DNA of 64,000 nt from Verrucomicrobiota bacterium (GTDB taxonomy: Bacteria > Verrucomicrobiota > Verrucomicrobiia > Opitutales > Cerasicoccaceae): positions 104,302 through 168,301 of the forward strand of contig JBCBUK010000004.1 of assembly GCA_039818205.1 (NCBI GenBank), in the 5' to 3' direction. Shown piece by piece: positions 21,022 through 31,916 of this stretch; the stretch's first letter is position 1, and every line of letters starts with the position of its first letter. Position numbers and translations under genes: made by a program. The notes beneath the pieces are model-generated. The model made no database searches, was not told the DNA's origin, and was given only the letters and a program-made list of their open reading frames with translations.

Positions 21022-21459
21022 ATGGAATTAACGGCGTTTACTGACTACTCTCTGCGAGTGCTTATGTTTTTGGCACAGAACGATGGTCGGCAGTCGTCGA
21101 TTGATGAGCTGGCCGAGTATTATGACCTGTCTCGCCACCATGTGGCCAAGATCACAGGCCGTTTGTCCAAGGCAGGCTTTTTGGTTTCCAGTCGTGGCAA
21201 ACACGGCGGAGTTGCATTGGCGATGGATGCAAAAGACATCAACTTGGCGGCGGTCGTTAAGCAGACCGAACCGCATTTTAACCTGGTTGAGTGTTTCGCG
21301 GACGGGAAAAATGGCTGCCGCTTGAGCGAATGTTGCCGCTTAAAAGGCATCCTGCTCGGTGCTCGTGCACAATTTTTTAGTTATCTGGAAAAATTTACCC
21401 TCGCGGATGCCGTTGCCGGAAAATGGCCAGCGCCAGCCGAGGTGTCCGGATCTAAGTGA
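21022..21459 (+). CDS. nsrR: Rrf2-family NO-sensing repressor, NsrR-like
   Basis: MELTAFTDYSLRVL, SRGKHGG wing, LVECF-x-C-x-CRLK Fe-S cysteines; globin in the adjacent operon. Confidence 0.85.
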   Translation: MELTAFTDYSLRVLMFLAQNDGRQSSIDELAEYYDLSRHHVAKITGRLSKAGFLVSSRGKHGGVALAMDAKDINLAAVVKQTEPHFNLVECFADGKNGCRLSECCRLKGILLGARAQFFSYLEKFTLADAVAGKWPAPAEVSGSK

Positions 21460-21563
21460 TTACGGCGTTTCAGTCCGTATTACTGTTTGGGCATGAGTTT
21501 AATTCATGCATCAAATGCATTTTTTTGAATAGGAATTTTTCAAGAATCTTGGATCATTTTTAA

Positions 21564-21586
21564 AAGTGGCATTCTCGATGCTATTT
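21564..21586. promoter_or_regulatory. candidate NsrR operator (11-1-11 inverted repeat)
   Basis: AAGTGGCATTCTCGATGCTATTT, GCAT-N5-ATGC core, 42 bp upstream of the operon ATG. Confidence 0.55.
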
Positions 21587-21628
21587 TGGGTTCGCAATTA
21601 TTCGACTTCACCCAAAACGACTAGCATC

Positions 21629-22234
21629 ATGAAAAAAACGATTATCGCTATTGCGCTTGGTATGGGCGCGATTGGTACCGCTGGGTTAATTACTGGCTGT
21701 TCTGATTCCGGGGCCAAGGAAGCTGCGGCTCCTCCCGGTGTTTCCTTCGAAAAACTCACCGACGCACTGCACATGGTGCTCGAGAACGACCGCACCGTTT
21801 ACACGCAGAAGGTCGTCAACCGTCTCGTCAAGGACGACAAAGTCATCAAAGCCAGTGAACACTGGACCGAAGACAAAGCCTTGCCACTTCCCGCTCAAAT
21901 GTTCCGCATGGGCGCTGAATTGACCGCCGAAAAGGACGCTTGGTTCAACTACTCATTGCAGTCGCTGTGGCCGATCAACAAGTCGAACGCTGCTGGCCAA
22001 ACTGCAATTGAGAAAGAAGGCCTTGAGTTTGTTGCGGCCAATGGTGGCTCGGCACCGTTCTATGGTAAAGAGACCTTGGGCGGCCAAGAGTATTTCACTG
22101 CGGTATACGCAGACGTTGCCGTTGCGCCGGTTTGTGTGACCTGCCACAACGAGCACAAGGATAGCCCAAAGACTGACTTCAAACTTGGAGATGTCATGGG
22201 TGGTGTTGTGATTCGCATCCCAATGGACTCCTAG
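21629..22234 (+). CDS. DUF3365/Tll0287-like monoheme c lipoprotein
   Basis: Lipobox LITGC, LPLPAQMFR, SLWPIN, CVTCH, GDVMGGVVIRIP. Confidence 0.8.
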   Translation: MKKTIIAIALGMGAIGTAGLITGCSDSGAKEAAAPPGVSFEKLTDALHMVLENDRTVYTQKVVNRLVKDDKVIKASEHWTEDKALPLPAQMFRMGAELTAEKDAWFNYSLQSLWPINKSNAAGQTAIEKEGLEFVAANGGSAPFYGKETLGGQEYFTAVYADVAVAPVCVTCHNEHKDSPKTDFKLGDVMGGVVIRIPMDS

Positions 22235-22244
22235 TGCCTGTGGT

Positions 22245-22682
22245 GTGAAAAATCTATTCTGGATCAACGCCAGTTTGGCAAGTGTTGCCCTGCTAGTGTC
22301 TGCCCTCCTGGGCGGATGCGGCGGGGACGACGCGTCTTCTGAGGCTGAGGTGAAGCGTCCTGACGCGACTCCCGCCAAAGCGGAACGTCTGGATCCCATG
22401 GCCTTGGTGCTGACTGATCCAAAATTAACTGAAGGGCGAGACATTTGGATTCCAAAGTGTGGGCAATGCCACCTCACCGGCTTAGGCGGTGCGCCGATTA
22501 TCGGCGATAAGGAAGCCTGGGCAGACCGCATCGCACAGGGTAACGAGACGTTGTATGATCACGCGATCAACGGATTCTCTGGGCCGAAGATGCTGATCAT
22601 GCCACCCAAAGGCGGTTTCTCCGAGTTGACCGATGACCAGGTCAAGCTTGCGGTGGACTTCGTCGTTTTCGCCAGCCAGTAG
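22245..22682 (+). CDS. cytochrome c5-type lipoprotein
   Basis: Lipobox LGGC, CGQCH, GAP..GDKEAWADRIAQG, MPPKGG. Confidence 0.88.
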   Translation: MKNLFWINASLASVALLVSALLGGCGGDDASSEAEVKRPDATPAKAERLDPMALVLTDPKLTEGRDIWIPKCGQCHLTGLGGAPIIGDKEAWADRIAQGNETLYDHAINGFSGPKMLIMPPKGGFSELTDDQVKLAVDFVVFASQ

Positions 22683-22716
22683 CTGACCATTTAAAATCGA
22701 AAAGGAAAGAAATAAT

Positions 22717-23094
22717 ATGAGTACTCTATATGATAAGTTGGGTGGCGAACCAGCCATCGACGCCGCTGTCGACATTTTCTACGTCAAGGTTTTGGCGGAT
22801 GACCGTATCAAGCACTTCTTTGAAGGTATCGATATGGACAAAATGCGCGACCACCAGAAAAAGTTTCTCACCTTCGCCTTTGGCGGACCAAGCCGTTACT
22901 CCGGTCGCAGCATGGGCCCAGCACACGCGCGCCTGGTTGAAGAGATGGGTTTGAATGACACGCACTTTGACGCGGTTATCGAAAACCTTGGTGCAACCTT
23001 GGTTGAGTTGAATGTTCCCGAAGAACTGATCAACGAAGCCGCTGGTATCGCCCTTAGCGTACGGGATGACGTCCTTGGGCGCGCACCGGCTTAA
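22717..23094 (+). CDS. glbN: group I truncated hemoglobin
   Basis: TLYDKLGG, FY (B9-B10), FGGP, YSGRSM..AH proximal His, HFDAV. Confidence 0.92.
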   Translation: MSTLYDKLGGEPAIDAAVDIFYVKVLADDRIKHFFEGIDMDKMRDHQKKFLTFAFGGPSRYSGRSMGPAHARLVEEMGLNDTHFDAVIENLGATLVELNVPEELINEAAGIALSVRDDVLGRAPA

Positions 23095-23108
23095 GGCGAA
23101 CAAACATC

Positions 23109-25082
23109 TTGGGTAAAACAACTCCCAGTTCTGACGCCGACCCGCTTGTCATTGTTGGCAATGGTATGGTGAGTTGGCGTCTTTGTCAGCAGCTGGTGGA
23201 CCGCGGGGTTCACCAGCAGCGCAAGATTGTTGTATTCGGTGAGGAACCACGGGCTGCCTATGACCGGGTTAACCTCACCAAAATGTTTGGCCTCACCGAT
23301 CCAGACGAACTGTTGTTGGCGAAGGCAGAGTGGTATGATAAGCACGCGATTCGCCGTGAATCTGATCGCCACATCCTTTCGATCGACCGGGAAGCGCAAA
23401 CGGTTCTCGACGACGGGGGAAACCTTACGTCCTTCTCGGACTGCGTGATTGCCACGGGTAGTCGCGCATTCGTGCCAGAGATTGATGGCGCTCGCCTACC
23501 GGGTGTCTTTGTTTATCGGACGATCGCAGACGTCGAAGCGATCAAAGAGGCCGCAACCTCGGCTAAGCGCGGATTAGTCGTCGGTGGCGGATTGTTGGGC
23601 CTGGAAGCGGCGGATGAGCTGCGCCGCCAGGGAATTGAGACCTGCATTGTGCAGAGCTCAAACTGTTTGATGAGCCGGCAGCTGAATCCGGATAGTGCGG
23701 GTTATCTCCTGCGTGAAGTCGCGAGTTTGGGCATGAGCGTTCGGCTCACCACGCGAACGGAATCGATCGAGCAAGTCGACTGTCACCTCCGGGTCAATTT
23801 TGACCAGGGTGAACCGATGGACGTCGACCTGGTGGTACTCGCGGCTGGCGTTCGCCCTCGCGATGAACTCGCCCACGATGCTGAGCTTCCGGTGGCCATT
23901 CGTGGCGGAATCATCATCGATGACAATTTACAAACTGAAGACCCCAACGTGTTTGCGATTGGGGAATGTGTCTCACACCACGGTGTCCTGTATGGCATCG
24001 TTGCCCCAGGTTACCAACAAGCGGACTGCTTGGCAGCTCGATTTGCCGGTGAGAATAAACAATACGAGGGCAGTGACCAATCGTGCCGGCTTAAGCTACT
24101 CGGCGTCGAGGTCAGCGTATTTGGAGACTATTTTGGAGAAGGCTTGACCCATGTCTACCGCGGAGCGGACAGCTACCGATCGATTGTCACCCAACGGGGT
24201 CGATTGATTGGGGCAACGGTGGTCGGTGAGTGGAAGCATACGACTCTAATCGAACGTGCCGTTCAGGAGCGGCGCCCACTGAGCCAGAAGCTCTGCGATG
24301 AGTTTGCACTGACCGGCGAGCTCTTCCGTGACACACAAGAAGAGACTGTGTTGTCGTGGCCCGATAGGGCCTTGATTTGTCATTGCACGAGCACGAATTG
24401 TGGTGTCTTGCGCGAGGCGGTTATGGGCGGTTGCGCGACGGTTAAAGAGCTATCGTCTAAGACGGGCGCCGGCAGCGTTTGTGGATCATGCATTCCACAG
24501 CTGGCGGAATTTGTTGGTGAAGATGGCCAAGCACTGGCTGCAGCGGGAGCGCCGAAGGGTAAACTGCTCCTTACGATTTCCGCGGTCATTGGTTTCATCA
24601 TGGTTCTGGTGTTTTTCTTTGTTCCAGGACTCCCGGCAGCCGAATCGGTCCAAACCTCCTACTATGAGTTTACTCAGATCTGGCAGGATTCGATAACGAA
24701 GCAAATTACGGGGTATACCCTGGCGGGGATTTCCGTGGTGGCCTTATTGTTGTCGGTACGGAAGCGCATCAAATTTATTTCCTTCGGGAACTATGGTTTC
24801 TGGCGGGCGGCCCATTCATGGCTCGGGGTTTCAACCATCGTGGTGTTGTTTTTCCATACGGGCCTACACTTGGGCGAGAATCTAAACCTCTGGCTGTTGA
24901 TGTGTTTCCTTGGATTGAATCTGGCCGGAGCAATGGCGGCAATTGCGGTGGCCACCGAGAAACGGTTCAGCGGATTCTGGGGAATGCGTCTGCGGCGATG
25001 GGCTCTTTCGTCACATTTGGTCTTTTTTATTCCGTACCCAGTGCTGCTTGGGTTCCACATCGCTAAGGTTTATCTCTACTGA
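23109..25082 (+). CDS. NirB-like FAD/NAD oxidoreductase + BFD [2Fe-2S] + His-rich membrane domain; no siroheme domain
   Basis: GNGM, YDRVNL, ATGS, GGGLLGLEAA, AIGEC, LKLLGV; CHC...CGSC; ~5 TM helices with 4 spaced His. Confidence 0.85.
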   Translation: MGKTTPSSDADPLVIVGNGMVSWRLCQQLVDRGVHQQRKIVVFGEEPRAAYDRVNLTKMFGLTDPDELLLAKAEWYDKHAIRRESDRHILSIDREAQTVLDDGGNLTSFSDCVIATGSRAFVPEIDGARLPGVFVYRTIADVEAIKEAATSAKRGLVVGGGLLGLEAADELRRQGIETCIVQSSNCLMSRQLNPDSAGYLLREVASLGMSVRLTTRTESIEQVDCHLRVNFDQGEPMDVDLVVLAAGVRPRDELAHDAELPVAIRGGIIIDDNLQTEDPNVFAIGECVSHHGVLYGIVAPGYQQADCLAARFAGENKQYEGSDQSCRLKLLGVEVSVFGDYFGEGLTHVYRGADSYRSIVTQRGRLIGATVVGEWKHTTLIERAVQERRPLSQKLCDEFALTGELFRDTQEETVLSWPDRALICHCTSTNCGVLREAVMGGCATVKELSSKTGAGSVCGSCIPQLAEFVGEDGQALAAAGAPKGKLLLTISAVIGFIMVLVFFFVPGLPAAESVQTSYYEFTQIWQDSITKQITGYTLAGISVVALLLSVRKRIKFISFGNYGFWRAAHSWLGVSTIVVLFFHTGLHLGENLNLWLLMCFLGLNLAGAMAAIAVATEKRFSGFWGMRLRRWALSSHLVFFIPYPVLLGFHIAKVYLY

Positions 25083-26431
25083 TGACGCGTCTGATTACAG
25101 TCAATCTGTTCTGGTTAACGATCGCTCTCGGTCTGTCGGTCTACCTCGGTTGGGCATTGTCTGGCGGGGCGGAGGATGTGGTGATGCCCGGCAAGACGAC
25201 GCATGGACACTATCAGATCGAACTCGATTGCGCGGCCTGCCATACGCCAAGCATGGGCGTTAAACAAGATTCCTGTAACGAGTGCCATGCCGAGGAGCTG
25301 GATCATGTCGACGATTCCCACCCAGTTATCAAGTTTAAGGATCCGCGGAATGCTGAGCGGCTGGAGAAACTGGACGCCCGTTATTGCATTACCTGTCACC
25401 GGGAACATCAACCGGAACTCACCAATACCATGGGCGTTACCTTGCCCAATGACTATTGCTATCATTGCCACCAGTCGATTGCGGAGGAACGCCCGACACA
25501 CGTGGGTCTCGGTTTCGAAACCTGTGCGACTTCAGGCTGCCACAATTTTCACGACAATACGGCGCTCTACGAACGCTTCATGGTTGAGCATTTGGATGAG
25601 CCAGACTTTAAGCCCAACCCGCAGCAACGCATTCGAGATTTCTATGAAGTGCACTATCCCGACCGAGGAGAGCCCTTGGAGTTCGAGCAGGCCAACATGT
25701 CAAGCAGCCTGAATGTAAGTCAGGATATCCTGCACGAGTGGTCTGTGACCTCACATGCGCAAGCGGGAGTTAACTGCCGGGACTGTCATGATGTTGCTAA
25801 CCCAGAAACGGGTGTTGTCAGTTGGGTGGATAAGCCGGATTACCATTCCTGCCAAAAGTGCCACGACTACGAGGTTAAGGGTTTTCTCGAAGGTCGGCAC
25901 GGCATGCGGTTGAATCAAGGACTAAGCCCGATGACGCCGGGAATGGCGCGTTTGCCGATGAAGGCTGAATCGCATCACAGTGAGCTTTCGTGTGTTTCCT
26001 GTCATAGCAGCCATGAGTTCAACACGAGTTTTGCGGCCGTGGATGCCTGTCTCCAATGTCACAACGATCAACACTCGTTGGCCTACAAGGAGTCACCGCA
26101 CTTTCAAGTGTTCCAGCAGGCCCAGGAAGGGATGCGTCCGATTGACGCTGGTGTGAGTTGTGCAACCTGCCACTTGCCACGAGTGGAGGTGTCCGAGTTC
26201 GGCGAAACCAAGGTCCGCGTTGATCACAACCAGAACAATAGTTTGCGTCCTAACGACAAAATGATCCGCGCCGCCTGTATTAACTGCCATGGTCTGCAGT
26301 TTACCCTCAATGCGCTGGCCGACGAGGAATTGATCAAGAATAACTTCCGTGGAGAGCCGACGCCGTTTGTCGAAAGTCTCGAGATGGCTAGGGAAGAAAA
26401 GATCCGAACGGAGGAGGCCAAACGTAGGTAG
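25082..26431 (+). CDS. membrane-anchored multiheme cytochrome c (10 CxxCH + 1 CxxxxCH)
   Basis: CAACH, CNECH, CITCH, CYHCH, CATSGCH, CRDCH, CQKCH, CVSCH, CLQCH, CATCH, CINCH; N-terminal TM; TGATG coupling to the upstream gene. Confidence 0.92.
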   Translation: MTRLITVNLFWLTIALGLSVYLGWALSGGAEDVVMPGKTTHGHYQIELDCAACHTPSMGVKQDSCNECHAEELDHVDDSHPVIKFKDPRNAERLEKLDARYCITCHREHQPELTNTMGVTLPNDYCYHCHQSIAEERPTHVGLGFETCATSGCHNFHDNTALYERFMVEHLDEPDFKPNPQQRIRDFYEVHYPDRGEPLEFEQANMSSSLNVSQDILHEWSVTSHAQAGVNCRDCHDVANPETGVVSWVDKPDYHSCQKCHDYEVKGFLEGRHGMRLNQGLSPMTPGMARLPMKAESHHSELSCVSCHSSHEFNTSFAAVDACLQCHNDQHSLAYKESPHFQVFQQAQEGMRPIDAGVSCATCHLPRVEVSEFGETKVRVDHNQNNSLRPNDKMIRAACINCHGLQFTLNALADEELIKNNFRGEPTPFVESLEMAREEKIRTEEAKRR

Positions 26432-26503: not shown

Positions 26504-27877
26504 ATGCCAGCGGATATTCTTACGGGCTACAACGTCCACACCGATGCGGATCGGGCAAAGATGCTTGGTGCGATGGGGAAAGAAACCATCGCCGATCTTT
26601 TCACGGAAGTTCCTGAACATTTACGGGTTGATGGCCTGTTGGACTTGCCGCCAGCGATGACCGAGTGGCAGCTTGAGCGGCATATCCGCGAGCTGGCCGG
26701 TCGTAACGATACCACCATCGACCATTTGAGCTTTCTTGGTGGTGGCGCCTACGAACATCACGTTCCGGCCGTGATCGATGCTATTGCAACACGTGGAGAA
26801 TTCCTGACCGCGTATACGCCGTACCAACCGGAAATGGCTCAGGGTATCCTGCGTTTTCTCCATGATTTTCAAATCACCATGGGGCGTCTGCTTGGCTTGC
26901 CGGCGGTAAACTGTTCGGTCTACGATGGTGCAACCGCGCTTGCTGAGTCGGCGTGGATGACCTGTCGCATCACTGGAAAAAAGCATTTGCTCATCGCTGA
27001 ATCCATTTGGGTCGAGTATCAGACGGTGTTGGAAACCTATTTGCGGGGCCGTGGGGTCACGATTGAGGTCGTGCGTTCGGATGAGGAATCGGGTCAAATC
27101 GATTCGGACCATCTATCGGAATGCATCCAATCAGAAACGTCGGCTTTCCTTTTCCAGTCTCCCAACCGCTATGGAGTGGTGGAGAACATGACCCAGATTG
27201 GGAATATTTGCCATGATCAAGGGATCATGAATGTCATGGCGAGCTATCCGATTTTATTTGGCCTGAAAAAGAGTCCGGGAGACTCCGGCGTCGATATTGC
27301 CGTTTGCGAGGGACAGCCGCTCGGTATGCACTTGAACGCAGGTGGGCCTTATCTCGGTATCATCGCAACCAAGACTGAGTTTGAAGGGCACCTTCCGGGC
27401 CGTATCGTTGGGGAGTGCAATGACTTAAAAGGCGAAGACGCTTTGGCGCTGGTTAAGGAAGAACGAGAGCAACACGTCGCCCGGCATGAGGCAACTAGCC
27501 ATATTTGTTCGAATCAAGCAAACCTGGCGCTACGGGCTTTGATTTATCTTTCCCTATTGGGTGAGCGTGGGTTCCGCAACGTTGCTGAACTGAGTGCGCG
27601 GAAGGCACGTTATCTCGAGCAGCGATTAACCGCGGTCGAGGGCGTATCCCGCGTCTTTAGTGGACCGTTTTTCAATGAGTTTTTGTTGAACCTTCCGCGT
27701 CCAGCCGCCGATGTGCTGGCCACCTTACGAGAGCAGAAAATCTTTGGTGGTATACCGATGACTCAGCTCGATCCCGAGGCGCCAGACAATCAACTACTGA
27801 TCGCCGTCACCGAAACGAAGTCACAGGCCGACCTCGACCACATGGTTGAAGTGTTTGCCGCTGCCATTGAAATTTAA
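26504..27877 (+). CDS. gcvPA: glycine dehydrogenase subunit 1-like (divergent)
   Basis: SFLGGGAY, EFLTAYTPYQPEMAQG, YDGATALAE, GGPYLG, LPGRIVG, REQH...ATSHICSNQA. Confidence 0.85.
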   Translation: MPADILTGYNVHTDADRAKMLGAMGKETIADLFTEVPEHLRVDGLLDLPPAMTEWQLERHIRELAGRNDTTIDHLSFLGGGAYEHHVPAVIDAIATRGEFLTAYTPYQPEMAQGILRFLHDFQITMGRLLGLPAVNCSVYDGATALAESAWMTCRITGKKHLLIAESIWVEYQTVLETYLRGRGVTIEVVRSDEESGQIDSDHLSECIQSETSAFLFQSPNRYGVVENMTQIGNICHDQGIMNVMASYPILFGLKKSPGDSGVDIAVCEGQPLGMHLNAGGPYLGIIATKTEFEGHLPGRIVGECNDLKGEDALALVKEEREQHVARHEATSHICSNQANLALRALIYLSLLGERGFRNVAELSARKARYLEQRLTAVEGVSRVFSGPFFNEFLLNLPRPAADVLATLREQKIFGGIPMTQLDPEAPDNQLLIAVTETKSQADLDHMVEVFAAAIEI

Positions 27878-27894
27878 CTCTAAATATCCGAGCC

Positions 27895-29355
27895 ATGACA
27901 CCCGATTCCATCTACACCAAGTCTCGCCCCGGCGTCAGTGGAGCTTCAATTGTTGACCACGATTTTGCTCTGGGCGGTTCGCTCGATGACCTTTGTGCGC
28001 CCGAAGATTTACGGGACCAGCCAATTGGGTTACCCGAGCTTTCCGAGATCGATGTCGTCCGCCACTTCACGAATCTTAGTCGTCAGGCTCATGGAGTTGA
28101 CAATGGACCCTATCCGCTGGGTTCCTGCACAATGAAGTATAATCCAAAGCGGAACGACAAGTTAGCAATGCTTGATGGCTTTGGGAAAGCGCATCCTCAT
28201 CAACCGGCGGATACCTTGAGTGGCGTTTGGGATCTGCTTTGGAAACTGCAAAACGGCATCGCCGAGATCACCGGGATGGATGCGGTTACCTTACAGCCTG
28301 CCGCCGGAGCGCATGGTGAATTTACCGGCTTACTCGTGATGAAAAAGCATTTCGAGAAGCTTGGGGAGAAACGTAAAACAATTTTGATCCCCGATACGGC
28401 CCATGGCACGAATCCGGCAAGTGCTGCGATGTGCGGCTTTACCTGCCGAATTATTCCGACAAACGATAAGGGCTTGATGGACTTGGAATCCTTCGAGGAA
28501 CACCTCAACGATGATGTCGCCGGGTTAATGATTACCAACCCGTCGACGCTGGGGCTCTTCGAAGAGAATATCGAATTGATTGCGGAGAAGATCCACGACA
28601 ATGGCTCGTTGCTCTATTATGATGGCGCCAACTTGAATGCGATCATGGGGTTGATTCGTCCGGGAGACATGGGCTTTGATGTAATCCACATCAATACGCA
28701 CAAGACGCTTTCGACACCTCATGGAGGTGGTGGACCTGGAGCGGGTCCGTGCGGAGTGAAGAAGTTCCTCGAGCCGTATTTACCGACACCCGTTGTTCGC
28801 CCGGTTGATGGTATTCCCCAACCGGATTACGATCGCCCGGAAGCCGTCGGCAAAGTGAAAACGTTCTTTGGCCATATCGAGGTATTGATACGCGCTTATT
28901 GTTATATCTTGGCGAACGGGCCAATCGGTTTGAAGACGGCTACTGAGAACGCCGTTCTGAACGCCAACTATATGAAGCATCAACTAGGCGACCTATTACC
29001 GTCGGTCTTTCCACAGAACTGTATGCATGAGTGCTTGCTGCACGGTGGTTCGTTGGAGGTGCGGGGCGCGGACTTTGTGAAGCGACTGATTGATTTCGGC
29101 GTCCACCCACCGACTTTGGTGGGGGCTGGCTGCGTCCATTTCGCCGAAGAGTTTGATGAGGCCATGTTGATTGAACCTACCGAAACTGAGAGTGTTGTAT
29201 CGCTTGATTTTGTGATCGAGCAGTTTCGAAAAGTTGCTCGCGAAGCGGCAGTTGCCCCTTATATGATTGAGACCGCTCCACACCATGCGAGCACCGCGAA
29301 AGTCATTCACAACGAAGCTGCGTGGATGAGTATTTACGAAGAACCCGAAGACTAG
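27895..29355 (+). CDS. gcvPB: glycine dehydrogenase subunit 2-like, PLP-binding (divergent)
   Basis: YPLGSCTMKYNP, QPAAGAHGE, AHGTNPASA, YDGANLNA, NTHKTLSTPHGGGGPG, IEPTETES. Confidence 0.88.
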   Translation: MTPDSIYTKSRPGVSGASIVDHDFALGGSLDDLCAPEDLRDQPIGLPELSEIDVVRHFTNLSRQAHGVDNGPYPLGSCTMKYNPKRNDKLAMLDGFGKAHPHQPADTLSGVWDLLWKLQNGIAEITGMDAVTLQPAAGAHGEFTGLLVMKKHFEKLGEKRKTILIPDTAHGTNPASAAMCGFTCRIIPTNDKGLMDLESFEEHLNDDVAGLMITNPSTLGLFEENIELIAEKIHDNGSLLYYDGANLNAIMGLIRPGDMGFDVIHINTHKTLSTPHGGGGPGAGPCGVKKFLEPYLPTPVVRPVDGIPQPDYDRPEAVGKVKTFFGHIEVLIRAYCYILANGPIGLKTATENAVLNANYMKHQLGDLLPSVFPQNCMHECLLHGGSLEVRGADFVKRLIDFGVHPPTLVGAGCVHFAEEFDEAMLIEPTETESVVSLDFVIEQFRKVAREAAVAPYMIETAPHHASTAKVIHNEAAWMSIYEEPED

Positions 29356-29361
29356 AGCGTC

Positions 29362-29796
29362 ATGGAAATTCCACCCTTTGAACCACGAAAAGCGAGAATC
29401 CTCGTTGTTGAAGACGTTAAGATGATGCGGGTTATGTTGGCCCGTCACCTCGACCAAGTGGGCTATGAATACCATCATGAGGTTGAGAATGGCCAGGAAG
29501 CCTTGGACTACATTGCGGAGAATCCAGTCGATCTGATTCTGCTCGATATCCAAATGCCGGTATTGGATGGCTACGAAACCTTAAAGGCTATCAAGGCCGA
29601 CCCACGGTATCAGAACATTGCGGTTATCATGGTTACCGCCGTAGATAATATTGAAAGCGTGGCTAAATGCATTCAAGATGGGGCTGACGATTATATGCCA
29701 AAGCTGTTTAATCCGATTCTACTCCCGGCCAAAATCGATACTTCCCTAGAGCTTCGCCACCTGAGGAAGGTTGTTGCCGACGCGAGTGCATCTTAA
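29362..29796 (+). CDS. single-domain response regulator (receiver)
   Basis: ILVVED, LILLDIQMP, IMVTA, GADDYMPK. Confidence 0.9.
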   Translation: MEIPPFEPRKARILVVEDVKMMRVMLARHLDQVGYEYHHEVENGQEALDYIAENPVDLILLDIQMPVLDGYETLKAIKADPRYQNIAVIMVTAVDNIESVAKCIQDGADDYMPKLFNPILLPAKIDTSLELRHLRKVVADASAS

Positions 29797-31916
29797 TGAA
29801 GTTGCCTCAAATCCAGTTTCGCAGCCTACGAACGCAGATCATTGTTTGTGTCGCCTTGCCTGTTATCGCGACGATCGTTGCGCTGTCGCTGATTCTACTG
29901 ACGGAATTCTATGCCCAGCTGAAGAAGGGCGCGCTGACCAACATCCGGTTGACTGCTGAGCAAGCAGCCGAAGAAATCGAGAAATCCAATTTGGAGTCGA
30001 TTACCTTTCCGAAGACTATGGCGTTGGCGCAGAAGCATGGTTTGTTTGGTGACCGCACGGCATCGGTTCGATACGCCGAGGAAATGTTGCGCATTCACCC
30101 ACAGTTGACCGGGGCCTACTTCGGTTATGAACCAAACGCCGATGAGCAGGATGCGGAATTCTTGGCCGCCGTGAAACCCTCCGATGCAGGCGCTCTCGAT
30201 GAAGATGGCCGGTTCTTACCTTACTGGTATCGCGATCACGAAGATGATAGCAAGATTCTGCTCACGCCCCTGGTCGACATGGAGACCAGCTATTATTACC
30301 AGGGAGCAAAGAATCGTGCGCTGGGTCAATCGGAGTCGAAGAATATTAAAATGGCTGAGGACAAAGAACTGAGTAAATATTACTCGGACAAAGAGCTGCA
30401 GATGCAAATGAATGACGCTGCTAACTACTTAGCGATGATTACTGAACCCTACGTCTACGAGGGGAAATTAATCGTTGAGCAAACCTATCCGATCATCATC
30501 GATGGCGAGTTTAAGGGCATTGCTGGTGTCGACCGTGCGCTGACTTTTCTGCAGGAATATTTGGAAGCACTGAAACCCTTTGAGACGGCCGAGTTTGTTT
30601 TAATTAGTCGGCGGGGACGAGTAATTGCCGCCACGGTGAATGAGGATTGGAAAACGAAACTCTTCGAGGATTTGCCGATCGGAGATACCTTGCTCGAGTT
30701 TTATAAGATTCGTGGTAACTCAGCGGTGGAGCTCGTCAAAGGTCCCGATGGTGTCGAACGCTTTTATGATTCAGTAAAGGTCCCCACAGGCAATTGGACC
30801 CTCGTGATGAGCGTTGAGAAATCCGAGATTTATGCGCCCTTGATCCTACGGTTGACGTTCATGATTGTGGTAACTGGCATCGGCCTTTTTGTTACGTTAT
30901 ACATCATGGTTTGGCTGGCTAATTCCATCTCGGCACGCCTATCCAATGCGGCGTCGATGGCGAGCCGTGTGGCCGATGGGGACTTGACCGGCAGTATCGA
31001 TGATCAATCGATTGACGAGACCGGCGTTTTGATGCGGGCCATTAAAGCCATGATCAACAATTTGAATCTGTTGATCGGCCAGGTGAAGGGTTCAAGTATT
31101 CAGCTGACTTCGACTGCCACGGCGATTTCATCAAATGCGAAAGCGCAAGAGGTCGCCGTTTGCGAGTTTGAAACATCGACCAATTCCATTGCAGCAGCCG
31201 TGAAAGAAATTTCGACGACCTCGCAGGAGCTTTCAAACACAATGAAAAACGTGACGGCGAAGGCAGATGATACGGCCTCGTTGGCCGATTCTGGGCGTCG
31301 TAGTTTGGAAGAAATGGAAGAGGTGATGGGGAATCTTGCGGAAGCCAACGATGCGATCTCGGAGAAACTCTCGGTCATCAGTGAACGAGCAAATAACGTC
31401 AACCGCATCATCACGACGATCACCACGGTGGCTGATCAGACAAATTTGCTTTCCCTGAATGCCGCAATTGAGGCCGAGAAAGCTGGAGAATACGGCCTTG
31501 GTTTTTCCGTTGTTGCCCGGGAAATTCGCCGCCTGTCAGACCAGACAGCCGTGGCGACTTTAGACATCGAGCAGATGATTACCGAAATGCAGACCTCGGT
31601 CGCCAGTGGAGTGGGGGAGATGGACTCGTTTAGTTCCAAAATGAAACAGAGCGTAACCGGTGTTCAGGAAGTGAGTCGTCAGTTGGTGACAATTATCAAG
31701 CATGTGCAAGAGCTCACCAAGCAGTTTGAATCGGTGCGTCAGGGCATGGATACCCAATCGGTCGGGGCCAAGCATATCGATGAAGCGATGGTCCAACTAA
31801 AGGACGCTGCACAGTCAACGACCCAATCAATTTATGGGTTCAATCGTGCGACGCATGACCTGCAGGATTCGGTCAAGGTGCTCCGCAACGAGGTTGATAA
31901 ATTTAACATGAGTTAG
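29796..31916 (+). CDS. methyl-accepting chemoreceptor: dCache, HAMP and WspA-like signalling domain
   Basis: 2 TM, DETGVL HAMP, ADQTNLLSLNAAIEAEKAGEYGLGFSVVAREIRRLSDQTAVATLDIEQM. Confidence 0.92.
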   Translation: MKLPQIQFRSLRTQIIVCVALPVIATIVALSLILLTEFYAQLKKGALTNIRLTAEQAAEEIEKSNLESITFPKTMALAQKHGLFGDRTASVRYAEEMLRIHPQLTGAYFGYEPNADEQDAEFLAAVKPSDAGALDEDGRFLPYWYRDHEDDSKILLTPLVDMETSYYYQGAKNRALGQSESKNIKMAEDKELSKYYSDKELQMQMNDAANYLAMITEPYVYEGKLIVEQTYPIIIDGEFKGIAGVDRALTFLQEYLEALKPFETAEFVLISRRGRVIAATVNEDWKTKLFEDLPIGDTLLEFYKIRGNSAVELVKGPDGVERFYDSVKVPTGNWTLVMSVEKSEIYAPLILRLTFMIVVTGIGLFVTLYIMVWLANSISARLSNAASMASRVADGDLTGSIDDQSIDETGVLMRAIKAMINNLNLLIGQVKGSSIQLTSTATAISSNAKAQEVAVCEFETSTNSIAAAVKEISTTSQELSNTMKNVTAKADDTASLADSGRRSLEEMEEVMGNLAEANDAISEKLSVISERANNVNRIITTITTVADQTNLLSLNAAIEAEKAGEYGLGFSVVAREIRRLSDQTAVATLDIEQMITEMQTSVASGVGEMDSFSSKMKQSVTGVQEVSRQLVTIIKHVQELTKQFESVRQGMDTQSVGAKHIDEAMVQLKDAAQSTTQSIYGFNRATHDLQDSVKVLRNEVDKFNMS

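Follow-up and report, generated by a model that had tools for sequence, protein, structure and literature searches.

A gene module linked to nitrate assimilation joins a NirB-type membrane fusion to an 11-haem cytochrome and may handle nitric oxide

Several enzyme systems, among them the NOX and ferric reductases, the Fre-MsrQ-MsrP system and cytochrome b561, pass electrons from reduced nicotinamide adenine dinucleotide or its phosphate (NAD(P)H) to a flavin, on to two membrane haems and then to an acceptor outside. Here we describe a six-gene operon with a predicted wire of this general kind, at positions 21022-26431 of a 64,000-nucleotide stretch of DNA (the window; positions 104,302 to 168,301 of contig JBCBUK010000004.1, assembly GCA_039818205.1) from a member of the Verrucomicrobiota in the Cerasicoccaceae (Opitutales). 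Other described systems resemble other parts of it. In Bradyrhizobium japonicum, the NasST-controlled narK-bjgb-flp-nasC genes provide a globin and a flavoprotein that remove nitric oxide (NO) from nitrate assimilation (PMC4724949). Legionella pneumophila has a glbN-ferredoxin reductase operon, predicted to be under NsrR control, in a genome without hmp and hcp (PMC1274295). Cyanoglobins protect against NO, and assigning NO dioxygenase activity to a globin requires that turnover be shown (PMC3820574). In the sCache_heme family, the available part of a preprint describes stand-alone Cys/His members as redox-like and signalling-fused members as NO-binding (PMC12889525).

We lean, if only a little, towards reading the operon as a module that is induced by nitrogen starvation or nitrate and whose role is to capture or recycle NO in the cytoplasm as well as in the periplasm. 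One genome per species was scanned for relatives of the 11-haem cytochrome, of which at least 593 were confirmed, and families were assigned with Pfam and NCBIfam. Locus counts below refer to the best 80 of these at least 593 loci (79 genomes), which are not a random sample. They span the Verrucomicrobiota, Planctomycetota, Pseudomonadota, Acidobacteriota, Myxococcota, Poribacteria and others. The core module comprises four genes: the 11-haem cytochrome, a NirB-type fusion (76 of 80 loci), a DUF3365 protein (75 of 80) and a globin (66 of 80). A cytochrome c5 gene is present in 32 of 80. In 75 of the 76 loci that hold it, the fusion gene sits immediately 5' of the gene for the multihaem protein, and in the four loci without it the sequence ends no more than 131 nucleotides upstream. 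Partners co-occur far above chance. The preliminary description of this DNA had expected these families to be conserved together with nsrR; the families do travel together, but an Rrf2 gene is adjacent in only nine of the 80 loci, all of them Opitutales, and in L109.

That description had also counted the globin as part of the system, and its place in the core bears this out. Clustering of all neighbours separates 3/3 single-domain globins, in 51 loci, from truncated globins, in 15, and the two never occur together. A quick tree was built from 69 multihaem proteins (the window protein and those from 68 of the 80 loci, with partial and non-adjacent ones excluded); on it, the truncated class requires seven label changes, five of them forced by strong branches. 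This repeated exchange of two unrelated globins suggests that the module requires a globin activity rather than one specific globin. The distribution of the module is patchy (three of 41 close relatives, two of 121 Opitutales), and the closest named homologues among the matches listed, at 76% identity, are from Cerasicoccus. Cultured carriers of the module include Cerasicoccus frondis, C. maritimus and Neptuniibacter sp. CAU 1671. Horizontal transfer into the host genome (99.97% complete) was considered and rejected for want of a signal in guanine-plus-cytosine content, which is 53.5% in the operon and 52.7% in the genome. In locus L085 (1693-11045) the module is tandemly duplicated with one globin between the copies. 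The module is also present at L078, in a record titled Akkermansia, where the multihaem protein groups with one from Rariglobus with 100% support.

The fusion protein (657 aa; 23109-25082, plus strand) joins a NirB-type Pyr_redox_2 domain for flavin adenine dinucleotide (FAD) and NAD(H), a BFD [2Fe-2S] domain and a hydrophobic, five-helix C-terminal membrane domain. Residues 13-469 match positions 1-465 of the 794 in the NirB model TIGR02374 (413 bits, with the cut-off at 578); the match stops there, and the sirohaem/[4Fe-4S] catalytic domain of NirB is not in the fusion. The four BFD cysteines and His569, His583, His636 and His650 are invariant in 111 sequences (the window protein and 110 full-length ones among the 150 matches listed), as are the histidines in a second set of 69. 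A model of residues 415-657 has five long helices at a predicted local distance difference test score (pLDDT) of 90, and the four histidines sit on helices. The loops preceding the two His-bearing helices hold 5.4 and 4.0 Lys plus Arg, against 0.6 and 0.4 on the opposite side, a positive-inside distribution that would put His569 and His636 at the cytoplasmic face and His583 and His650 at the periplasmic face. A trans-membrane dihaem b has just this arrangement, with a His pair at either face, and we predict that the membrane domain is such a protein with the four histidines as its ligands. The Glu that follows the second Rossmann strand in 88 of the 111 sequences suggests that the fusion uses NADH, the window protein having Gln at this position. 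A chain from NAD(P)H through FAD, [2Fe-2S] and dihaem b to the multihaem cytochrome had been proposed for this operon; it fits both the invariant ligands and the topology, and this architecture, taken by itself, is very probably right.

Among membrane proteins, CybB is the closest fold match to this domain, and Pfam finds weak matches to cytochrome b561 in six of 69 members and to Ferric_reduct (PF01794) in three (best E 0.0018). Given the resemblance to the NOX and ferric-reductase type of trans-membrane reductase, one might suppose that the module supplies periplasmic reductant for something other than nitrogen oxides (ferric iron, sulfur compounds or the repair of oxidised proteins), in the manner of Fre-MsrQ-MsrP or the ferric reductases. 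We regard this as very unlikely, as no iron-uptake, sulfur-oxidation or MsrP-type gene recurs near the module. The recurring families belong to nitrate transport, reduction and regulation, the CysJ-like gene in the neighbourhood travels with nirA, and the DUF3365 protein lacks the distal Cys of Tll0287-type proteins. The fusion has no FNR-type dehydrogenase joined to PF01794, the flavin domain being of the Pyr_redox_2/NirB type, and no curated family reaches its cut-off for this membrane-reductase architecture. Foldseek returned no match at E 0.001 for the model of either the membrane domain or the 11-haem protein, and the ESM Atlas only uncharacterised clusters. Some of the Atlas clusters have the BFD and membrane domains without the FAD domain. 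Shortened fusions are also seen at L014 (7694-8974), where most of the FAD domain is gone, and at L066 (8472-8993), where the membrane domain stands alone behind narK.

The 11-haem cytochrome c (25082-26431, plus strand) has an N-terminal hydrophobic helix as its anchor, ten CxxCH motifs and one CX4CH motif (C148-H154). All eleven motifs are invariant in alignments of 60 and 69 homologues, and so are 11 histidines outside them, enough for every haem to be bis-His. By hhalign with two PF13447 proteins (99% probability), haems 6-11 fall on haems 2, 3, 5, 6, 7 and 8 of hydroxylamine oxidoreductase (HAO), and HAO haem 4 falls in a gap. Haem 4 is the catalytic haem of HAO (PMC8042395), and because it is deleted here, the protein is more likely a wire than an enzyme. 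The preliminary description had instead taken this cytochrome for a quinone-independent periplasmic reductase of nitrite, NO or hydroxylamine, with the CX4CH or another haem as a possible open site, a proposal that has lost ground and that we now judge unlikely. Kinship of the C-terminal half with the fold of HAO, octahaem nitrite reductase (ONR) and NrfA speaks for it: the top five VIA-align matches are of this fold (Z 5.2-7.3), although those at Z 7.3 (root-mean-square deviation (rmsd) 14.3, 208 residues aligned) and Z 7.0 (rmsd 3.8-4.0, about 200 aligned) lie under the reliability level of the tool, and the best Foldseek E for the HAO-family fold is a weak 0.009. An Asp-His pair behind haem 9 aligns with the corresponding pair of HAO-family proteins, conserved residues are left to spare (His170 in 57 of 60, His41 in 52 of 60, Lys84, Lys393 and Met275/284/394), and automatic database names call some members 'NrfA- nitrite reduction protein'. 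Against these points stand the deleted haem 4, the match of 11 invariant histidines to 11 haems, the absence of any CxxCK motif from the protein and scores below the NrfA cut-offs (22.5 against 24.1 bits for PF02335, 16.5 against 595 for NF008339). The region of the CX4CH haem is poorly modelled, with pLDDT below 50. Moreover, the host genome already has NirB-NirD, as a fusion, and a separate NirA, and NirA or NirB often adjoins the module in other loci, which argues that the module does not replace them.

PF13447 is not among the families matched by the 69 members, and a NapC/NrfH-type head was rejected, since PF03264, which we take to be that family, matches none of them. The HAO ancestry could also be read as pointing to inward flow, with periplasmic haems oxidising hydroxylamine, NO or nitrite and feeding a cytoplasmic flavin or globin. 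This we find highly improbable, with the catalytic haem missing and the flavin domain corresponding to the NADH-oxidising half of NirB; reduction of NAD+ from any of these donors is, besides, uphill by redox potentials. The system II cytochrome c maturation genes resB and ccsA are inserted in or adjoin the module at L009, L010, L013 and L014, all Opitutales, and C23:20210-24036 of the window genome is listed together with these loci. Such genes are possibly needed for the CX4CH haem.

The DUF3365/Tll0287 (sCache_heme) protein (21629-22234, plus strand; PF11845, E 8e-19) is a monohaem c lipoprotein with one CxxCH and a lipobox-like Cys24. It is the most conserved part of the module, with a mean pairwise identity of 0.56 against 0.50 for the multihaem protein and 0.41 for the C-terminal part of the fusion at the same loci. 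Met91 is present in 73 of 74 aligned sequences (73 of the 75 DUF3365 loci are included), and Arg55, Tyr58, Glu77, Gln90, Arg93 and His176 are invariant. The distal Cys of Tll0287-type proteins is absent: the window protein has only Cys24, Cys169 and Cys172, and no other Cys is conserved among the 74. The Tll0287 structure 5b82 aligns at E 0.26 and over the C-terminal part only, so that the distal ligand cannot be mapped by this route. A polar, conserved and Cys-free subfamily would fit a ligand-binding end point, and we consider the DUF3365 protein a candidate for the terminal ligand-binding or catalytic haem.

Upstream of the globin is an optional class I, c5-like monohaem cytochrome c lipoprotein (22245-22682, plus strand; PF13442, CxxCH at 72, lipobox-like Cys25). 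Its identification with Thiobacillus Tbd_0146 was ruled out, as the latter is dihaem according to the available text (PMC3753534).

Since a wire with no catalytic haem of its own needs an outside acceptor, a cytochrome of this kind invites the idea of an NADH-to-O2 bypass, in which the wire would discharge through c5 or DUF3365 into a cbb3 oxidase, either to burn surplus NADH in nitrogen-starved cells or to keep O2 low near the enzymes of nitrate assimilation; the globin would then buffer O2. Cytochromes of the c5 type are the usual donors to oxidases, and the host genome does have cbb3 oxidases. Yet no oxidase family recurs among the neighbours, c5 is found at 32 loci only when DUF3365, the most conserved component, is found at 75, and the location of the module downstream of nasT and next to an NsrR-like gene favours nitrogen oxides. 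We therefore consider the bypass quite unlikely.

The globin of the window (22717-23094, plus strand; Bac_globin, E 4e-18) is a group I truncated globin of the cyanoglobin (GlbN) type. Its nearest solved structures are cyanoglobins (E 5e-41), and Tyr22, His46, Gln47 and His70 are the same as in cyanoglobin 1s69, presumably corresponding to B10, E10, E11 and F8. At L063, L079, L080 and L083 a gene for a [2Fe-2S]/FAD/NAD reductase comes next after that for the truncated globin, an order shared with the glbN operon of Legionella, and L079 has two tandem globin genes.

The genomic surroundings uphold the link to nitrogen oxides drawn in the preliminary description. Genes for nitrate assimilation (nas) lie within 9 kb of the module in 35 of 80 loci, and a NasA-like gene is found in 65 of 79 module genomes as against 21 of 121 Opitutales. 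Selenocysteine in the NasA of relatives was considered and dismissed, the in-frame TGA being the terminal stop. Usual NsrR targets had been noted as missing from the operon, and the same holds genome-wide: the host has no Hcp and no PF00042 globin or Hmp, and NrfA, NirK and NirS fall below cut-off (norVW was not searched separately). No NO reductase was identified either, as the three PF00115 matches are oxidases, two tested as cbb3-type and a third judged aa3-type by eye. The truncated globin of the window is the sole globin found in the host genome. Across the 79 module genomes Hmp exceeds its cut-off in four, a count with no baseline for comparison. In the nitrate cluster of the host (C9:41238-53423), a 4Fe-4S/DmsC membrane-anchor gene precedes nasA and a CysJ-like flavoprotein gene follows nirA; the same arrangement is seen at ten loci of the Planctomycetes-Verrucomicrobia-Chlamydiae group (L027, L037, L041, L056, L060, L061, L066, L067, L076 and L078).

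Control by nitrogen status is suggested by the DNA 5' of the DUF3365 gene. In an alignment of 12 Opitutales loci, GG-N10-GC, which we take to be the sigma54 -24/-12 signature, is kept in 11. The predicted promoter of the window (21567-21582, plus strand) lies within an imperfect 11-5-11 inverted repeat, and the host genome has rpoN. A strict form of the pattern has 42 matches genome-wide, 13 of them upstream of genes: amt, glnII, urtA, a putative urea ABC transporter gene, nrtA, genes for a porin and a LysR regulator, ilvD, four unassigned open reading frames and the present operon. The palindrome ATGA-N7-TCAT, a predicted enhancer for a sigma54 activator (21491-21509 in the window), occurs 60-140 bases 5' of the site in five of these 13 (11 were inspected, two being scored as misses) and in 22 of 2628 background windows, an enrichment with a binomial probability of 2e-6 even when the present operon is left out. 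It is common to the amt, glnII, nrtA and two porin promoters, one of these porin genes, of nas type, being added by a relaxed joint scan, and it is exact in five of ten related loci. The candidate activator is an NtrC-like protein (492 of 559 bits) at C10:61767-63332; the palindrome differs from the NtrC box. The paired sites (C3:167400, C3:35809, C3:266285, C5:295115, C9:41176 and 21491-21582 of the window) outline a nitrogen regulon for the Opitutales, and inspection by eye showed something similar upstream of nirB. In the wider set, 28 of the 69 loci with sufficient upstream DNA have a sigma54 site ahead of the module, where shuffled sequences lead one to expect 1.1; 20 further loci lie no more than 300 bp behind nasT (seven), a nitrate ABC transporter, its porin, narK, nirB or a nirA-linked flavoprotein. 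We predict that what the loci have in common is control by nitrogen status rather than by NsrR.

The Rrf2 regulator gene (21022-21459, plus strand; Rrf2, E 3e-33) is a lineage-specific add-on outside the conserved core. Its product aligns with Streptomyces coelicolor NsrR (5n07, E 2.4e-15) with Asp8 and the three cysteines, Cys91, Cys99 and Cys105, in register, and these ligands are kept in nine neighbour proteins. It misses the NCBIfam NsrR cut-off of 182 bits (115.6, with 111.5 for RirA; three neighbours score 126-137). With this score, with an Rrf2 gene at so few loci and with the sigma54 promoter and enhancer between the regulator gene and the rest, the earlier portrayal of the operon as headed by NsrR is weakened. 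The NsrR box is gATGyAT-N5-ATrCATc (PMC1274295). The window shows no canonical copy of it, and an ATGCAT repeat at 21506-21520 was rejected as one since its spacer has three bases rather than five. At the sigma54 site nine of 14 box positions agree (seven to nine at other sigma54 sites), and a near-canonical box was found in L022 only. Palindromicity of the sigma54 site, scored out of 11, is 7.55 in 11 Rrf2 loci, 4.84 in 19 module loci without Rrf2, 4.7 in ten other sigma54 sites of the host genome and 5 in L013, a relative without Rrf2. The inverted repeat may double as a repressor site, giving dual control, but this is only a lead, because the Rrf2 loci are kin and AT-rich.

All six open reading frames of the operon are on the plus strand; the 169 bp between rrf2 and the DUF3365 gene are followed by gaps of 10, 34, 14 and -1 bp. 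The positions, packing and families originally assigned to them were all confirmed. The flanking genes are housekeeping genes unrelated to the operon. Downstream, gcvPA and gcvPB start 72 bp after it on the same strand, with a response regulator and a chemoreceptor beyond (26504-31916 of the window), and gcvP does not recur among the neighbours of related loci. Scans for sigma70 promoters and terminators gave matches at chance level only.

Taken together, these features suggest how NO capture or recycling might proceed. An NtrC-like activator at the palindrome, or NasT in Proteobacteria, would switch the operon on; in the Opitutales, an NsrR-like repressor acting at the promoter may in addition make expression responsive to NO. 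On the cytoplasmic side, NO would be oxidised by the oxy-globin to nitrate, the nitrate would return to assimilation, and the globin would receive fresh electrons from the FAD/[2Fe-2S] domain. Electrons from NADH would also pass through FAD and [2Fe-2S] to the dihaem b domain, with its His pair at each membrane face, and on to the 11-haem protein as an all-bis-His wire. The DUF3365 haem would be the end point, binding and reducing NO or a related nitrogen oxide, with cytochrome c5 as an optional shuttle. A bolder version, which we think rather doubtful, is that this is a new form of nitrogen scavenging: a starved cell would harvest NO or hydroxylamine as a nitrogen source, the globin oxidising it to nitrate inside and the DUF3365 haem reducing it outside, by way of an NADH-to-periplasm wire assembled from one half of NirB and an HAO that has lost its catalytic haem.

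Several observations weigh against NO handling by the module or against parts of the route just outlined. No globin was seen in 14 of 80 loci, about nine of which have long flanks, and four loci have a ferredoxin-reductase-type gene beside the truncated globin, so that the fusion is not necessarily the globin's reductase. The fusions at L014 and L066 lack most or all of the FAD domain. The match of the membrane domain to CybB (5oc0, cytochrome b561; Z 10.3, rmsd 3.3, 128 aligned) is tied with talin and unrelated soluble helical bundles. The putative Met ligand and pocket of DUF3365 are read from conservation alone, and the preprint on its family, as far as it is available, gives stand-alone members redox rather than NO-sensing roles (PMC12889525). 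As for the nitrate link, the weaker NasA-like matches (32-37% identity) may be of FdhF or Nap type, since NCBIfam does not separate the three cleanly, and the baseline is of Opitutales only. The module is absent from two NasA-containing genomes of the same genus and so is dispensable for nitrate assimilation.

If the proposed function is correct, the module would act as an NO sink that is widespread and coupled to nitrate assimilation. Electrons from NADH would have a path to the periplasm that needs no quinone, orphan globins of the single-domain and truncated classes would gain a partner, and a stand-alone DUF3365 subfamily would have a first function. What the window adds is the sigma54 and enhancer evidence for nitrogen-status control, and the lineage-specific NsrR-like gene. 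There is also a practical side: no fewer than 593 genome stretches carry a gene for the 11-haem protein, and the nitrite-reductase names on some members could inflate ammonifier counts in marine and sediment metagenomes.

As the preliminary description had supposed, no system of this composition appears to have been characterised: we found no description of the gene set in the literature searched by full text, a search whose coverage excludes most subscription journals and supplements, and a Ferrigenium preprint (10.64898/2026.01.22.701106) had no match to the module terms. The Uet cluster was set aside by gene content rather than by an alignment of UetJ, as the module is without the beta-barrel, trihaem c7 and NHL partners that the available text places around UetJ (10.1101/2022.05.06.490989). 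With NirB, the fusion shares FAD, NAD(H) and the first BFD cluster, but it remains under the family cut-off and has a membrane domain in place of the sirohaem/[4Fe-4S] half. With NOX, MsrQ and b561 it shares paired histidines 14 residues apart on two helices; unlike NOX and MsrQ, its flavin domain is N-terminal, of the disulfide-reductase rather than the FNR type, and accompanied by [2Fe-2S], and its acceptor would be a multihaem cytochrome. The six C-terminal haems of the 11-haem protein are collinear with those of HAO and show a weak fold match to HAO, octahaem nitrite reductase and NrfA, but the protein is without haem 4 and CxxCK and has an extra five-haem N-terminal domain and membrane anchor. 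Like sCache_heme proteins, the DUF3365 protein is a stand-alone periplasmic monohaem c domain with a CxxCH insert; it differs in lacking the distal Cys and in belonging to a highly conserved, operon-tied subfamily, of which we found no mention in the available part of that preprint (PMC12889525). The Legionella glbN operon likewise has a cyanoglobin and a reductase, predicted to be under an NsrR regulator, but it has two genes and no periplasmic arm, and the accessible text describes no sigma54 or nitrogen control (PMC1274295). The closest tested system is Bjgb-Flp, a single-domain globin and a separate flavoprotein co-regulated with nitrate assimilation; as described in the accessible text, it is purely cytoplasmic and has neither a membrane dihaem domain nor an 11-haem cytochrome nor a DUF3365 protein (PMC4724949). 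Because the defining features of NirB, NrfA, HAO, NOX and Uet are absent, the system is, judged by its sequence, new in kind and built from known parts.

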